From Candidatus Amesbacteria bacterium (GTDB lineage Bacteria; Patescibacteriota; Microgenomatia; CAZETR01; Amesbacteraceae): a stretch of 64,000 nt of DNA. The stretch's first letter is position 1. Every line of letters starts with the position of its first letter. The notes below the pieces were generated by a model. The model saw only the letters and a list, made by a program, of their open reading frames with translations, was not told where the DNA came from and searched no databases. Positions 19,928-24,537 of this stretch are shown in pieces. The translations under genes were made by a program, and so were the position numbers. Location of the stretch: contig DAHXMV010000001.1 of assembly GCA_027371535.1 (NCBI GenBank), forward strand, positions 253,259 to 317,258, read 5' to 3'.

Positions 19928-20893
19928 CTACTTATTGGCAAAAATGACGGCATTGGGGAGGTTGCGGCCGGGACCATACAGGTACCTACCATTGTATATA
20001 AGGGCGGTGGAACCGCCGGTGTCCAGGTTAAGAGCCCCCCGGGCCCCGAGGGCCTTAAATACGTAAGCAAACTGCTGCATGTTCACAGCCTGGGCGACGA
20101 CCACGATTACATGCTGGGGATCAATGACACCGATTCCCACTTTGGTATTGACACCTTTTTGCTTATCCGACAAGCCGGACTGATTATCGTCAATTTGGAC
20201 GTTACCACCGTCCAATAACCCGGGGTAATTGACAATCCCCGCAATTAATCCCCCGCTAAAACCGGCTGAACTATTCAAATAGTGAGCTCCCGAGCCGTCA
20301 ACATAAAAAATGGCCCGGCGTTCGTTCCAGAATAATTTGTCCTGATTAATCCATTTACCCAGACGGGTGTTGTAAACCGGAAAGTCATATGAATTGGTCT
20401 TTCCGGAACAGTCGGGATAGGTATCGGGGCAGAAATAGCTGCCATTGACCCCGGCGTAACCGCCGTTTTTAGATACATAATTTGCCAGAGGATAGACGTT
20501 GCAGGCGTTGCCGCAATTATCATCATTACCGGTATCCGTAATCACCCTGGTGCCGGCCAAATTAAAAGCCATGACCGTAACTGAAAAAGTCCCTTTGGGT
20601 GTATTCACTGTAGATCTGGTAAGACCGGTGCCCGGCGGTCCGGATATGGGAATCGGGGTCGGCTTCGGGAAAGGAGTAGGAGTCGGCCTTGGGGTAGGAC
20701 TGGGAATCGGGGTAGGAATTAAAGTGGGCAGGGGCTCGAAAGTCGGAAAAACCCGGGAGGCAGCCGATGGCGGTACAGAAACAGCAGCAGACTCATGGTT
20801 TAAGGTTAAGACTACTAACCCGGAAACGGTGATTAACAAACCAAAAGTTAAGGGTACTATTAAAACCGATCCCCGGTGAGGTACAACGGGCAT
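19928..20893 (-). CDS. Phosphodiester glycosidase-family (NAGPA/DUF2233-like) surface protein
   Basis: N-terminal TM segment, a Pro/Thr-rich linker, and a C-terminal ALNLDTGGST resembling the (L)NLDGGGS motif of phosphodiester glycosidases. Confidence 0.5.
   Translation of the reverse strand: MPVVPHRGSVLIVPLTFGLLITVSGLVVLTLNHESAAVSVPPSAASRVFPTFEPLPTLIPTPIPSPTPRPTPTPFPKPTPIPISGPPGTGLTRSTVNTPKGTFSVTVMAFNLAGTRVITDTGNDDNCGNACNVYPLANYVSKNGGYAGVNGSYFCPDTYPDCSGKTNSYDFPVYNTRLGKWINQDKLFWNERRAIFYVDGSGAHYLNSSAGFSGGLIAGIVNYPGLLDGGNVQIDDNQSGLSDKQKGVNTKVGIGVIDPQHVIVVVAQAVNMQQFAYVFKALGARGALNLDTGGSTALIYNGRYLYGPGRNLPNAVIFANK
20608..20758 (-). repeat. Low-complexity Pro/Thr-rich linker coding repeat (PTPIPSPTPRPTPTPFPKPTPIP)
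   Basis: Direct reading of the ORF translation. Coordinates are approximate. Confidence 0.5.
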
Positions 20894-20934
20894 TAATTAT
20901 TATTAAACACGATTTTTAAGATATAGTATAGATA

Positions 20935-22080
20935 ATGAAGCAAAAGTCCAAAAAAGAGCCGGTGGTGATATCCGAGGATAAAGATCTGACCCAGATAACC
21001 AGAGAAGGTGAGGATACCCAGAGTGAGAATAAAAGGGCGGTACCGACGGTCCTCCTAATTACCATTTTAGTGGTAGTTTTTTCGGCAATTCTTGGTATAT
21101 TTATTAGGGCTTCTAAGGTACAAAATAAAAAATACGTATATACTTTATTACCCACCCCGACTCCGGCTCAATTATCGGGGATATTATTGTACTCAGAAGG
21201 AGAAATTAAACTTGTCAGATACGGTTTAACCATTAGTCCGAACGCCAATGATCCGATAAAAGAGAGTGATCTGATAATGAGTAATAAAAACTCGAGGCTT
21301 GTAATTAATTTTGCCGATAAAGCGGAAGTCAGGTTGGGTGAAAATTCAACTTTGCAGGTGAACAAATTAAGACCCGGGAATATTGATTTAAATCTTATAA
21401 ACGGGGATATATTTTTCCGTGTAAACTCAAGTGAAAATCAGCATTTCAGCCTCACTATCAACCAGGTGAACATTAAAACAGTAACAGGAATTTTTATGGC
21501 GGAGAACCTGAAAAATATTTCGGTGAAAGTAATGTCAGGGTCTGTTACCCTGACGGCACCCGGCATTTCTCAAATGGTAATATCAGAAAATCAGATCTGG
21601 AATGACAAAAATCAGTTAAGACAGCTGACTTCAGACGATATTAACAAAGATAAATTCCTGGTCTGGTGCCTGGCAGAAATGGCAACCCCCACTCCCCGGC
21701 CCCAGCCTTTGACCAGTCCGACAACAATACCCACCATTATAGTTCCCACAGCCACACCTACTCCGACTCCCGCCCCCACATCAATTCCCAGCCATGTAAA
21801 TCAAATCTCCCTATCGGTTCAGCAAAGCGGTCTGAAAGCCCTTTTAGACTGGAGCGTGGACGGAACAGCCGTCTATGGATACGAAATTCTCTGGTCAAAC
21901 TCACCGGATCCGACGTATCCGCCAAGAACCGGTGACAATTTTATCTATGAAGCCAATACCGTGGCCAGGCATGAGGAGATTAATATTTACCAGACCGGCC
22001 TGCCATATTATTTCCGGATCTGCGAATATTTAAACGACCAGTGCGGAACGATCTCAAACGAAATAATGGTGCAATACTGA
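20935..22080 (+). CDS. Membrane-anchored protein with FecR-like beta-sandwich region and Pro/Thr linker
   Basis: TM segment (LLITILVVVFSAILGIFI). The central region resembles FecR/DUF4974, and a PT-rich linker is followed by a C-terminal beta-rich domain. Confidence 0.35.
   Translation: MKQKSKKEPVVISEDKDLTQITREGEDTQSENKRAVPTVLLITILVVVFSAILGIFIRASKVQNKKYVYTLLPTPTPAQLSGILLYSEGEIKLVRYGLTISPNANDPIKESDLIMSNKNSRLVINFADKAEVRLGENSTLQVNKLRPGNIDLNLINGDIFFRVNSSENQHFSLTINQVNIKTVTGIFMAENLKNISVKVMSGSVTLTAPGISQMVISENQIWNDKNQLRQLTSDDINKDKFLVWCLAEMATPTPRPQPLTSPTTIPTIIVPTATPTPTPAPTSIPSHVNQISLSVQQSGLKALLDWSVDGTAVYGYEILWSNSPDPTYPPRTGDNFIYEANTVARHEEINIYQTGLPYYFRICEYLNDQCGTISNEIMVQY
21681..21795 (+). repeat. Low-complexity Pro/Thr-rich linker (ATPTPRPQPLTSPTTIPTIIVPTATPTPTPAPTSIP)
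   Basis: Direct reading. Coordinates are approximate. Confidence 0.5.
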
Positions 22081-22160
22081 TAACAAAAATTGTAAGAAAA
22101 CCGGTGGTCCGGCAAAGTTTGGAAAATATAAGATACGGTTATTATTTACGGACAAAGTAA

Positions 22161-22433
22161 ATGATCGGATACCTGGCCAATATTGAAGAAGTAACGCTGG
22201 AAAACTCAAATTATCGGAAAATGCTGTTTTCAGGGAGAAATTGCCAGCTGATCGCCATGTGCCTGAAACCGGGAGAAGAAATGGGCAGGGAGGTCCACGC
22301 CAAATCGGATCAAATATTCTATTTCGAAGACGGTAAGGGCAAAGTGGTGGTAGAGGATGAGGAATATCAGGTCAGGCCGGGAGTGGTAATCCTTATCCCC
22401 CAGCACCGACTTTATAGAAACTTCTTGATATAA
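22161..22433 (+). CDS. Cupin-domain protein (small)
   Basis: Cupin-like core (GEEMGREVHAKSDQIFYFEDGKGKV...PGVVILIPQHRLY), 90 aa. Confidence 0.45.
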   Translation: MIGYLANIEEVTLENSNYRKMLFSGRNCQLIAMCLKPGEEMGREVHAKSDQIFYFEDGKGKVVVEDEEYQVRPGVVILIPQHRLYRNFLI

Positions 22434-22440
22434 TTTGTTT

Positions 22441-23040
22441 ATGGAAAATAATGTTACACCGATTGATTCGAGATATATTCCTTTTACCCAACAACCCGCA
22501 TGTTGTGTACCAACCTGTTTCCAGATGGTTATGTACCGTCATAATATTCCACTAATACCTGCGGAAAAAATTGGTTATTATTTAGGTTTAACTGTTCATC
22601 CAGATAGGGCATATTTATTTTACAGTGTAAGAACTTCAATTAATAAACCACCAGCTGGTTATGTTACTAGGATTTATGACCCCGAATATGAACCTAATAT
22701 ATTTTTTAAGAAATTTAATATTCCACTCAACTTTAATAAAATTCCGATAACCAAAGTTAAGTCACCTGAAGATATATTAGGTTACTTAAAAAAAGTTGAA
22801 ACAGTAGATAAAGATGTATTGCTTTGTTTTCACCATGGAACTCTTATTAATGATCCAGATAAAGATTGGGGTCACGTATGCGTTTTTGACAGAATAATTG
22901 ACGGAAAAATAAGAATTATTGATCCAAGTCCAGACTACCCTAAATGGAGGTTGGTTGAAATAAACAAAATGTTTGAAGCTATGGTAAAACATGGTGAACA
23001 AAGGTCTGCAGGATTTTGGGAATTGGAATTAAATCGCTAA
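22441..23040 (+). CDS. Papain-like cysteine peptidase (C39-like) domain protein
   Basis: Gln...Cys...His order: TQQPACCVPTC (candidate oxyanion-hole Gln and nucleophile Cys), then a downstream GHVCVFD (His) and an Asp. The ORF track starts at a TTG at 22435, but ATG at 22441 is the more likely start. Markedly AT-rich coding sequence. Confidence 0.35.
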   Translation: MENNVTPIDSRYIPFTQQPACCVPTCFQMVMYRHNIPLIPAEKIGYYLGLTVHPDRAYLFYSVRTSINKPPAGYVTRIYDPEYEPNIFFKKFNIPLNFNKIPITKVKSPEDILGYLKKVETVDKDVLLCFHHGTLINDPDKDWGHVCVFDRIIDGKIRIIDPSPDYPKWRLVEINKMFEAMVKHGEQRSAGFWELELNR

Positions 23041-23042
23041 GT

Positions 23043-23073
23043 AATAAGTTCTAACAGCGTCCCAAACACGCAG
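23043..23073. repeat. 31-bp direct repeat, copy 1 (aataagttctaacagcgtcccaaacacgcag)
   Basis: Exact 31/31 identity with 23647..23677. It begins 2 nt after the stop codon of the upstream gene. Confidence 0.85.
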
Positions 23074-23081
23074 CACGATTT

Positions 23082-23651
23082 TTGTTCTATAATCAATTTA
23101 TGAATTTACCCATAAATACAATTAAAGTTGATAATGATTTATATCTTAAAATCTGGGATATCAATTACTCTTCCGAGCTATTTAAATTAACAGACCAAAA
23201 CCGAAAATACTTACAGCCTTGGTTGCCATGGGTACCGAGTGTTAAGTACGAAAATGATTCAATTAAATTTATAACCCGCGTTATCAAAGAGATGAAAAAT
23301 GGCGAAGGTTTGGAATTGGGAATCTGGTATCAAAATAAACTTGTCGGATGTATCGGTTTGCACGGGTTAAGTAAATCAAACCGCAGGGCAAGTATAGGTT
23401 ATTGGCTTAGCAAAGAATATCAAAAAATGGGAATAATTACTCGTTCTGTAAAAGCATTGGTAGATTATTCTTTTAACATTTTAAATCTTAATCGTATTGC
23501 GATAGAGGCTAGTACTGAGAATCTTTCAAGTTGTGCAGTTGCGGAGAGACTAGGTTTTGTTAAAGAAGGTATCGTTCGACAATTTGAATATGTTGATGGA
23601 AAATTTTTGGACTATCAGGTTTATAGTGTACTTAAATTTGATTGGAAATAA
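23082..23651 (+). CDS. GNAT N-acetyltransferase, RimL/RimJ-like
   Basis: GNAT motif A region (IGYWLSKEYQKMGIITRSVKALVDY) with RimL-like N-terminal extension. AT-rich. Flanked by the 31-bp repeat. Confidence 0.7.
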   Translation: MFYNQFMNLPINTIKVDNDLYLKIWDINYSSELFKLTDQNRKYLQPWLPWVPSVKYENDSIKFITRVIKEMKNGEGLELGIWYQNKLVGCIGLHGLSKSNRRASIGYWLSKEYQKMGIITRSVKALVDYSFNILNLNRIAIEASTENLSSCAVAERLGFVKEGIVRQFEYVDGKFLDYQVYSVLKFDWK

Positions 23652-23677
23652 GTTCTAACAGCGTCCCAAACACGCAG
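23647..23677. repeat. 31-bp direct repeat, copy 2
   Basis: Identical to 23043..23073. It overlaps the GNAT stop codon. Confidence 0.85.
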
Positions 23678-23838
23678 GGGGCGGAACATAATTTATTAAA
23701 TACCTCAAAAAGCCGGGATCTGAAGTTATTTACCTTATTCGCACCGCCGTTTCACCCGGCCGGGACGGAACAGAAAAATAAAACGGATAAGGCTTAACCA
23801 GTGACGGGATATGGCAAATCTGATAAAATTTCCAGGTT

Positions 23839-24537
23839 ATGGAAGATAATTTGAACCCGTTTTATGAAATCAGCGTAAACGGCAATGAACCTGCCTGGTG
23901 TATCGACGGCAGGAAAGAGTCAGGCCGGACAAAAAAAGGCGCCCAAATGCCCGGAGGATCAATATTCCCGATTCTGCTGGCGATTATTGAACAAAACGAA
24001 GATTTCTCCGCGGAGAACATAAACAGATATGCCCAAAAATTATCAAAGAAATTCAAACTGGGGGTTCACAGGGGAGAACACGGCGGTTGCGGATTTGCCA
24101 ATAATCTGATCAGAATCCTGCTAAAAATAACGGAAAAAGAAGAAGAAATAAAAGAGAGATTGAAAGATTTTGAAACAAATTCAGTTTATGAATCGCTGAA
24201 AGGTTATTCTTTATTAAAGGTAAAGGTGACCGGAGAAGAATTGATCAGCGATTTGGAAAAACAAAACGCGGTTGTTATGAATCTGGTCGGTGAACATGAA
24301 GAAAGGGCGGCCTTTGTAAACCTGAAAGACGGGACTACCTTGGACGTTCTGAAAGCCAATGAATCCGGGTCTCCGGCATTCAACCTGGATCTGTGGATGA
24401 TTGTAAAACAAGCCAAAGAATTGGGAGTAAATGAAGATTTTGCCCGAATCGCGTCTTTAATTATATATTTAGCCACGGAAATGGTACTGGTAGAAGATAA
24501 AGGAAAACCGGCATTAGATATAATTGTTCATAAATAA
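23839..24537 (+). CDS. Hypothetical protein in the atpI position of the ATP synthase operon
   Basis: Ends 3 nt before atpB. Soluble, 232 aa. Contains CIDGR and, about 60 residues later, HGGCG, a Cys-Asp-Arg...His-x-x-Cys spacing reminiscent of the beta-carbonic-anhydrase zinc site. It lacks the intervening RNAGN motif, so this may be coincidental. Confidence 0.3.
   Translation: MEDNLNPFYEISVNGNEPAWCIDGRKESGRTKKGAQMPGGSIFPILLAIIEQNEDFSAENINRYAQKLSKKFKLGVHRGEHGGCGFANNLIRILLKITEKEEEIKERLKDFETNSVYESLKGYSLLKVKVTGEELISDLEKQNAVVMNLVGEHEERAAFVNLKDGTTLDVLKANESGSPAFNLDLWMIVKQAKELGVNEDFARIASLIIYLATEMVLVEDKGKPALDIIVHK

Follow-up and report, generated by a model that had tools for sequence, protein, structure and literature searches.

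Integrons, pdif modules, islands at tRNA genes and the attachment sites of large serine integrases are the closest described counterparts of the locus considered here, a two-gene islet containing two copies of a 31-bp direct repeat in a 64,000-nucleotide stretch of a Candidatus Amesbacteria genome (assembly GCA_027371535.1, contig DAHXMV010000001.1, positions 253,259 to 317,258 of the forward strand; hereafter the window). In integrons, the attC sites are imperfect palindromes of approximately 57-141 nt that carry RYYYAAC and GTTRRRY cores, fold into a hairpin and are exchanged at G/TT (here and below, a slash within a sequence marks the exchange point), while intI, attI and the promoter Pc stand at the head of the array and the cassettes are mostly promoterless. 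The pdif sites of Acinetobacter measure 28 bp, have an 11-6-11 structure and occur in alternating orientation, and the canonical site of a serine integrase is composed of two half-sites in imperfect dyad symmetry. In large serine integrases, the zinc-ribbon-domain motif is found at half-site positions 16-24 in attP and 5 bp nearer to the centre in attB, and attB sites are approximately 10 bp shorter than attP sites (PMC3783163). Lastly, the islands and tycheposons residing at tRNA genes extend over several kb to tens of kb, each with its own integrase (PMC4383910; 10.1101/2020.12.28.424599).

The islet spans positions 22404-23677 (1,274 bp) and probably represents two small, integrase-less mobile cassettes, each with an attachment site, that entered a cupin gene in tandem through site-specific recombination. 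Interruption of this Cupin_2 gene, a point absent from the preliminary description of the locus, is apparent from the sequences on either side. The 90-aa open reading frame (ORF) upstream (22161-22433) holds a Cupin_2 domain truncated at profile position 52 of 70 (matching positions 3-52), whereas joining 22161-22403 to 23678-23797 yields 363 nt in frame and a 120-aa protein that matches Pfam Cupin_2 over positions 3-68 of 70 (E = 3.9e-15), has its PxGxxHxxxN motif restored and aligns without a gap across the join with two intact homologues and PDB entry 2oa2. A complete Cupin_2 domain is obtained only once the insert is deleted, and the in-frame rejoined gene therefore identifies the islet as a 1,274-bp insertion within a gene. 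Uninterrupted, the cupin gene would read ...ATCCCCCAG straight into GGGGCGG, which is the empty-site sequence, and the 90-aa "cupin" and 51-aa ORF annotated here are two halves of one disrupted gene. The features of the locus are as follows.

22161..22403, + strand: N-terminal 81 codons of the Cupin_2 gene, ending ...VVILIPQ and reading on into unit 1 as far as a stop at 22433
22383..22403, + strand: target half-site within the cupin gene, GTGGTAATCCTTATCCCCCAG, read as a pseudo-attB that resembles a tRNA-Gln 3' end
22401..22403, + strand: CAG common to the target and both unit ends (three junction sequences)
22404..23073, + strand: putative cassette unit 1, 670 bp, GC 0.330, comprising CAC, a -10 box, ORF1 and repeat copy 1
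22429..22434, + strand: TATAAT box with TTGA before it, 6 nt 5' of the ORF1 ATG, no Shine-Dalgarno sequence, read from the sequence
22441..23040, + strand: ORF1, 199 aa, papain-fold (clan CA) cysteine hydrolase-like, of a conserved family found in Patescibacteria
23043..23073, + strand: repeat copy 1, putative attachment half-site of unit 1 (nhmmer 25.1 bits)
23074..23677, + strand: putative cassette unit 2, 604 bp, GC 0.334, comprising CAC, a -10 box, the Gcn5-related N-acetyltransferase (GNAT) gene and repeat copy 2
23088..23093, + strand: TATAAT box, 6 nt 5' of the GNAT ATG, no Shine-Dalgarno sequence, likewise read from the sequence
23100..23651, + strand: GNAT, 183 aa, RimJ/RimL-like (Pfam Acetyltransf_3, 4.9e-20; Acetyltransf_1, 1.9e-12)
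23647..23677, + strand: repeat copy 2, putative attachment half-site of unit 2 (nhmmer 26.0 bits), fused to the cupin sequence as an attR-like hybrid
23678..23797, + strand: C-terminal 39 codons and stop of the Cupin_2 gene, GAEHNLLNTSKSRDLKLFTLFAPPFHPAGTEQKNKTDKA, a small ORF after copy 2

The repeat itself, AATAAGTTCTAACAGCGTCCCAAACACGCAG, occurs exactly twice in the 64-kb window, at 23043-23073 and 23647-23677, where 0 chance matches are expected (100 shuffles). No third copy is present in the window when up to three mismatches are allowed, nor does the terminal 19-mer of the repeat occur there beyond the same two sites, and because the bases flanking both copies differ, the identity extends over exactly 31 nt. 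The TAA stop of ORF1 (23038-23040) lies 2 nt 5' of copy 1, while that of the GNAT gene (23649-23651) falls within copy 2. The composition of the insert is foreign to its surroundings: its GC content of 0.332, compared with a window mean of 0.456 (standard deviation 0.035; z = -3.5), is the lowest among same-size stretches of the 64-kb window, the lowest non-overlapping stretch having 0.361, and GC at third codon positions is 0.22 in ORF1 and 0.28 in the GNAT gene versus 0.42-0.58 in neighbouring genes. The preliminary description had reported a direct repeat with 31 of 31 identical positions, a copy at or next to each preceding stop codon, and two genes richer in AT than their neighbours, all of which are borne out, the last to an extreme degree. 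Its repeat positions are likewise correct, whereas its islet start at 22435 is not, as the foreign segment begins at 22404; the TTG at 22435 is a mechanical ORF start only, and the ATG at 22441 is most likely the true one. Its proposal of a cassette-like acquisition of the GNAT gene, through recombination at a short repeat, gains support and can be extended to both genes.

The three junctions of the locus read CCCCCAG/CACCGAC, ACACGCAG/CACGATT and ACACGCAG/GGGGCGG, and the insert is therefore composed of two tandem units. Because CAG is common to the target and to each unit end, the exchange point in the window can be placed only within 3 nt; copy 1 together with the CAC that follows it is the sole complete motif in the locus. 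The units encode only ORF1 and GNAT, with no integrase among them, and no terminal inverted repeats or inverted arms were detected in the islet. ORF1 has the conserved catalytic Cys and His of a papain-fold cysteine peptidase (clan CA, C39-like), and the nearest relatives of the GNAT protein (66-77% identity) derive from Patescibacteria or Woesebacteria wherever a source is named. Judging from their sequence and position, the two TATAAT boxes would serve as promoters of leaderless mRNAs; a consensus promoter scan gave no statistical excess of promoter-like sites at the locus. Units in three further loci (L135, L055 and L030) share this layout, in which the gene begins 6-7 nt past a box reading TATAAT or TAGAAT and has no Shine-Dalgarno sequence, which suggests that leaderless mRNAs are typical of these units.

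Independent evidence for the two outer junctions is found in contigs of a k = 31 assembly (Logan) of run SRR13170412. One of these (L003) holds the N-terminal part of the cupin gene, unit 1 and the repeat, stopping one base before the repeat end, and confirms the left junction; a second (L137) begins with the last 30 nt of the repeat, continues with GGGGCGGAAC..., the C-terminal part of the cupin gene and the ATP synthase genes, and confirms the right junction. Both contigs break at the repeat, and the tandem order of the units is therefore taken from the 320-kb NCBI contig alone.

The 31-mer is a member of a wider motif family. A 17-nt core, AAGTTCTAACAKCGTCC, was scanned against metagenome contigs and matched at least 120 of them; copies were scored with an nhmmer profile, and the counts of motif loci given here and below are those among the matches listed. 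The motif consists of an A-run, the 17-mer, nine variable GC-rich bases, and A27 G28 C29 n A31 (approximately 63% each), a pattern that appears in flanks not part of the search query and that the window 31-mer fits, its junction lying between G28 and C29. For the most part, copies lie outside coding sequence or follow directly after a stop codon. Two or more copies are present at 44 loci; at a threshold of at least 14 bits, 32 such loci are retained, in every one of which (32/32) the copies occupy one strand only, with a median unit length or spacing of 832 bp and a main ORF co-oriented with the motif in 39 of 46 units. The largest array (L135) comprises 12 units in 10.5 kb on the same strand, carrying unrelated genes that include those for an inositol monophosphatase, a methyltransferase, VIT1, NUDIX and Maf proteins, a HigB/HigA-like toxin-antitoxin pair and a glycosyl hydrolase. 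L011 and L012 have a related sequence, AAGTTCTAACATCGTCCAGTAG..., 3' of several genes that are not related to one another, and ORF1 homologues are found in mobile contexts, namely beside large serine recombinases, directly after tRNA genes and in prophage-like regions. Judging from the named sources of cargo-protein homologues, the motif loci are probably from Patescibacteria.

Because the arrays are confined to one strand, tRNA-Gln genes lie upstream, units are replaced at a fixed position and a gene has been split, the motif marks mobile units and not generic terminators. The preliminary description had raised the prospect of a repeat that is common after unrelated genes and hence a generic terminator or a repetitive extragenic palindromic (REP)-like element; the first half of this is correct at the level of the family, in other genomes, while the second is not. 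The exact 19-mer has two single matches in 185,579 species genomes, neither extending past the 19-mer, which are attributed to chance, and among IMG/VR viral contigs there is one uninformative match, so that the motif is not a phage feature there. A search of 20 motif loci with Rfam returned nothing relevant, comparison of presence/absence pairs at 85% identity or above gave only an unrelated 148-bp indel, and no intact target gene was found at the far end of the arrays, many of which reach a contig edge. In the open-access literature, no paper was found that contains the motif sequence or describes cassette arrays in Patescibacteria. Two further readings of the motif were considered and set aside. 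Location within or at the start of a real opposite-strand gene was rejected, as the long ORFs (AlaRS, ArgC, PheT) are chance matches and elsewhere the frame breaks within a few codons; RNA-mediated spread through a tRNA-like 3' end was rejected because the units carry promoters, as far as these can be recognized, of their own.

The position of exchange is revealed by closely related loci in which both flanks are 98.5-99.7% identical and in which, between two motif copies, two units (L045 and L076) stand opposite one (L120). Left-hand identity extends through ...CCAGTCCCCGGAGC (...GGAGC) and is lost with the base that follows; on the right, the differences run to the end of the nine variable bases proper to each unit, and identity resumes from AAAACCAATTCC. 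From these breakpoints it follows that a unit travels with its own complete motif and that exchange takes place at position 28/29. Similarity between other loci ends in a cluster at motif positions 28-32, and the three junctions of the window fall at the same motif position as the exchange between L045 and L120 (AG/C), which is equivalent to G73/C74 of a tRNA.

Consistent with this equivalence is the association of the motif with tRNA-Gln. Genes for this tRNA (CTG or TTG anticodon) occur in 11 motif loci; in all 11 they share the strand of the motif and lie upstream of it, in most cases with 0.4-1.6 kb before the first motif copy. Other tRNA types at motif loci are scattered. The tRNA-Gln genes end in ...GTCCCGCAGC or ...GGGCAGC(CA), and the motif ends in ...CCCGCAGC/AAA (L135) or ...CACGCAG/CAC (window). 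Motif positions ~13-29 align with tRNA positions ~58-74, with A27-G28-C29-n-A31 corresponding to A72-G73-C74-C75-A76, and the exchange is therefore located at the very 3' end of the tRNA-like sequence. The cupin target, GTGGTAATCCTTATCCCCCAG, is identical at 14/21 positions to the tRNA-Gln 3' ends of L045, L030 and L024 versus 9/21 positions for the cassette motif, and it ranks in the top 0.9% of the 2,463 CAG-ending 21-mers in the window. It is interpreted as a pseudo-attB resembling a tRNA-Gln 3' end, a resemblance that would account for the splitting of this particular gene.

Separately, a partial tRNA 3' half, GTAGGTTCGAATCCTACCCGCGGAGC, is situated at L045:4860-4892 between the tRNA-Gln gene and the first motif copy, and resembles what an earlier, classical integration would leave behind. 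A second, unrelated array was encountered at L009:3285-8400 (GCA_012974985.1, JABAOH010001081.1), where a tRNA-Glu(TTC) gene is followed by at least 6 single-gene units, one of them an ORF1 homologue, each ending in an 80-100-nt repeat that resembles the tRNA-Glu 3' end and has its GTTCG block 5 nt further out than in tRNA-Glu. In L012 (3250-4251), an ORF1 homologue (69% identity) lies beside an intact Cupin_2 gene on the opposite strand, possibly by coincidence.

Clues as to the enzyme come from the geometry of these sites and from the genes beside them. Counted from G73, the GTTC-AA block is 21 nt away in 6/6 tRNA-Gln genes, whereas 26 nt separate it from the corresponding G of the motif; for the L009 family, the values are 22 nt (tRNA-Glu) and 27 nt (6/6 repeats). 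The 5-bp offset that separates attP from attB is thus present in every copy measured, in the Gln and Glu families alike, and a serine integrase is proposed because, relative to the exchange point, the cassette block is 5 bp more distant than the block of the tRNA, as in attP versus attB. One clade of large serine recombinases (34-36% identity) is represented in L101 and L035, where the gene terminates on the exchange side of the motif, and in L004, where it is part of an element integrated at tRNA-Gln that also encodes an ORF1 homologue. At L035:2150-2260, the final eight codons of a large serine recombinase gene overlap a partial tRNA-Gln 3' end that is identical, over 22 nt from GTTC on, to the tRNA-Gln 3' end of L067 and lies ~40 nt from a cassette motif. 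The 5-bp offset and the presence of this clade at the sites therefore make a trans-acting serine integrase the leading candidate, although this part of the model is tentative.

Compared with integrons, the arrays are similar in that they string together many units of ~0.5-1.2 kb that mostly hold a single gene, point the same way and close with a recombination site; in that the cargo is unrelated and includes toxin-antitoxin pairs; in that the few conserved bases past the exchange point belong to the next unit; and in that ectopic insertion at secondary sites takes place. They differ in nearly every detail of the site. Unlike attC, the site is ~31 nt long, one-sided and apparently a tRNA mimic, and although the repeat contains TTCTAAC, no GTTRRRY partner follows in the window or in the L055 and L135 units. 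Exchange is at AG/C (...CAG/CAC and ...CAG/GGG in the window; ...GGAGC/ in L045 and L120) rather than G/TT, the units have what appear to be promoters of their own (TATAAT boxes), and the arrays are anchored at tRNA-Gln. No IntI/attI/Pc platform was found in the window, with a limited recombinase query set, or in the 3 kb before the L135 array, where no recombinase is present either. The layout is integron-like, but every defining feature of attC and IntI that could be checked fails, and the earlier statement that the repeat is not an attC is upheld: it is 31 nt long, folds as RNA into a weak hairpin (-2.8 kcal/mol, no T-run) and has neither inverted arms nor a GTTRRRY partner.

Islands at tRNA genes and tycheposons (PMC4383910; 10.1101/2020.12.28.424599) integrate into the 3' portion of such a gene and bring along a piece resembling the tRNA, and direct repeats of tRNA 3' sequence mark their boundaries; the arrays would follow the same logic and have adaptive cargo too, and, as with tandem islands, successive integrations would push older ones deeper. 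In contrast to those elements, the units described here measure ~0.8 kb, hold one gene and no integrase, and form arrays of up to 12, and their repeat is not a faithful tRNA fragment but a conserved 17-mer with a mimic of the acceptor end and a 5-bp offset. The sites of large serine integrases (A118/LI integrase model, PMC3783163) offer a closer parallel, as both partners hold the same distal motif, displaced outwards by 5 bp in attP, with a shorter half-site of the attB type, 2-3 nt of identity at the crossover, no duplicated target, an integrase gene directly adjoining the site (L035, L101) and the apparent use of a pseudo-attB. Points of difference are the lack of a conserved second half-site or dyad symmetry, the location of the "attP" on integrase-less units, which would have it used in trans, and junctions that again look usable after insertion (motif plus new flank), unlike canonical attL and attR, which need a directionality factor. 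With pdif modules and integrative mobile elements exploiting Xer (IMEX), the units have in common a small size, the absence of their own recombinase and short sites used by an enzyme encoded elsewhere, but in the present arrays every site is one-sided and in direct orientation, and the crossover is misplaced under a Xer-like register.

Several other classes of element were tried and rejected. A self-splicing intron or intein does not fit, as no Rfam family is present in the 64-kb window and the cupin frame meets a stop 9 codons into the insert. For IS200/IS605 insertion sequences or palindrome-associated transposable elements (PATE), the left ends are not conserved beyond C-A/C-A and the small hairpin of the window repeat is not kept across the motif family. 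A DDE transposon or miniature inverted-repeat transposable element (MITE) is contradicted by the absence of terminal inverted repeats and by junctions with at most 3 nt (CAG) in common, and these same junctions agree with the earlier statement that the repeat is not a target-site duplication. An intrinsic terminator or REP-like element was dismissed since 22100-23900 contains no terminator-like site and there are only two copies in 64 kb.

Taken together, these data rather favour a model in which each cassette would consist of a promoter, one gene and a 3'-terminal attachment half-site of ~31 nt, that is, the 31-bp repeat. The half-site would imitate the tRNA-Gln 3' end, from the 3' strand of the T-stem through the acceptor strand and discriminator G73 to C(CA), and recombination would take place at ...CAG/C..., corresponding to G73/C74, with the 3' end of a tRNA-Gln gene as the normal target. 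Through repeated insertion at tRNA-Gln, arrays would build up on one strand, each unit closing with the motif, and the enzyme would act in trans, most likely as a large serine integrase of the clade seen beside the motif and tRNA-Gln. In the window, the two units, presumably by way of circular intermediates and in an order that we infer rather than read, would have entered the cupin gene at its look-alike of a tRNA end.

A number of observations weigh against this model. As regards the enzyme, no recombinase-like ORF was found in the 64-kb window with a limited query set, and no one recombinase family recurs near the motif among the matches listed: the commonest is present at 6/120 loci, serine recombinases at 4 and tyrosine integrases at 3. 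Adjacency of a serine integrase gene is seen at L101, L035 and the L004 element and is absent from the window and most arrays. As regards the site, conservation to the right of the exchange point is limited to +1 C (74%) and +3 A (59%), with no second half-site, and an inverted GTTCTAAC block is not enriched on that side. The nine-variable-nt region matches the local tRNA-Gln only partly (2-10/12 positions), the resemblance of the cupin pseudo-attB is only a ~1-in-100 event, and the 64-kb window contains no tRNA gene. Neither a free circular unit nor an empty cupin site from a sister genome was found, the order ORF1 unit, repeat, GNAT unit, repeat is known from one assembly only, and the assignment of unlabelled motif loci to Patescibacteria rests on the source names of homologues of their cargo proteins.

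The cassettes may of course be as described and the enzyme a different one, either a tyrosine recombinase (a classical tRNA-targeting integrase, or a host Xer-type or integron-like enzyme tolerant of heterology) or an enzyme for which recognition of one side suffices. Tyrosine integrases are the usual enzymes at tRNA genes (PMC4383910); their genes are located 3 kb from motif copies of two groups, A and B (listed below), in L050 and L089 and near the motif in L070, the ~125 nt conserved beside the motif in these groups have the size of a tyrosine-integrase P-arm, and one-sided conservation is atypical of serine integrase sites. Nevertheless, we consider this unlikely, given that exchange takes place at the extreme 3' end of the tRNA-like sequence with 3 nt in common with the cupin gene and no 6-8 bp overlap in the T- or anticodon loop, that the motif has no inverted core-type arms, and that a tyrosine enzyme gives no reason for a 5-bp offset in two families. 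A Xer/dif-like 11-6-11 register, in which the reverse complement ATGTTAGAA resembles a XerD arm, puts the crossover at 20/21 and was rejected because that position lies in the part travelling with each unit. It is improbable that the motif instead functions primarily at the 3' ends of transcripts, for example as a tRNA-like signal for processing or stability, with the units spread by homologous recombination at the motif copies and the cupin insertion an illegitimate, microhomology-mediated event. In many units the motif does lie between the stop codon and a terminator hairpin, its conservation over at least 120 contigs is strong, and homologous exchange between 30-nt repeats could bring about unit replacement; yet the breakpoints fall at the single position 28/29 and not anywhere in the common 17-mer, each unit retains its own nine variable nt, and the cupin target is joined exactly at the same position with only CAG in common with the motif end. 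Anchoring of the arrays at tRNA-Gln, the weak fold (-2.8 kcal/mol), a 160-nt group A/B region free of covariation and the restriction to two copies in 64 kb also argue against a transcript element.

That the assembly was mis-threaded, with only the ORF1 unit truly residing in the cupin gene and the GNAT unit derived from another locus, strain or free circle, is more improbable still. The two k = 31 contigs stop and start exactly at the repeat, which implies a branch of the graph there, and the GNAT protein is recorded from NCBI and ENA, not from Logan; however, 31 nt are far below read length and are resolved by larger k or paired reads, the 320-kb NCBI contig threads through, and both units share the same unusual composition. 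Even then the GNAT unit would need a repeat on both sides somewhere in the sample, such that the cassette reading holds. The alternatives favoured by two identical direct copies 604 bp apart, a tandem-duplication remnant or a duplicated terminator of two resident genes, are scarcely credible. Both had been entertained in the preliminary description and neither stands, as the units have nothing in common beyond the repeat and CAC, while the hairpin of -2.8 kcal/mol lacks a T-run and a scan for terminators was empty (22100-23900). In addition, the segment splits a gene and is compositionally foreign, and the repeat belongs to a family present in at least 120 unrelated contigs.

Within the motif family, about 20 copies sit in a ~155-nt conserved module that ends in the motif and defines the two groups.

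Group A: L048, L050, L057, L058, L068, L085, L101, L115, L125
Group B: L022, L032, L051, L061, L072, L080, L088, L089, L102, L104, L113, L127

On the opposite strand, the module reads as the last ~38 codons of a protein, ...WLPGQDDVRTFFEEDIEIPIYDIPLQQRVRAR before a stop, with the tail ...WLPGQDDVRTFF...RVRAR and a stop. Its variation at third positions is codon-like and an indel of 9 nt is present, but the reading frame is lost at the exchange point; in a free element, this tail may belong to a gene extending across the site. A structured RNA was rejected as an explanation (RNAalifold -4.7 kcal/mol, almost no covariation, no Rfam match). At L050:104-134 and L058:996-1026, the flanks are near-identical and the nine variable bases differ at 4 positions (TGCCCCCGG vs AGTCCGGGG), suggesting that the site is locally a hot spot of change. 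In L051 (2641-2720), ~600 nt downstream of a group B motif copy, there is a c-di-GMP-I-GGC riboswitch (59.9 bits; gathering score 59).

The surroundings of the islet in the window have further features of note. Directly 3' of the split cupin and 5' of the ATP synthase operon, the gene at 23839-24537 matches the cadmium carbonic anhydrase repeat PF18484 (4.4e-10), an unusual family for this location. Upstream of the cupin (19928-22080), an ORF with a NAGPA domain (19928-20893) and one with a FecR domain (20935-22080) contain long Pro/Thr-rich low-complexity stretches and have a locally high GC content of 0.50-0.55.

Quite possibly, Patescibacteria possess an integron-like capture system of their own, in which promoter-bearing, integrase-less cassettes tagged with tRNA mimics of attP geometry would be mobilized in trans, assembled into arrays at tRNA-Gln (in a sister family, at tRNA-Glu) and occasionally inserted at look-alike sites within genes. 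If so, reduced, host-dependent bacteria not known to have integrons would have a compact system for capturing and shuffling single accessory genes, in which a mimic of a tRNA end would tag the cassettes and a serine integrase would probably act in trans. The range of serine-integrase targets would then extend to tRNA 3' ends, and short natural attP/attB-like pairs with predictable geometry would become available for genome engineering. The 17-mer would serve as a sequence tag with which to harvest a mobile gene pool from metagenomes, and the system would explain part of the strain-level variation in gene content that is seen in these genomes.

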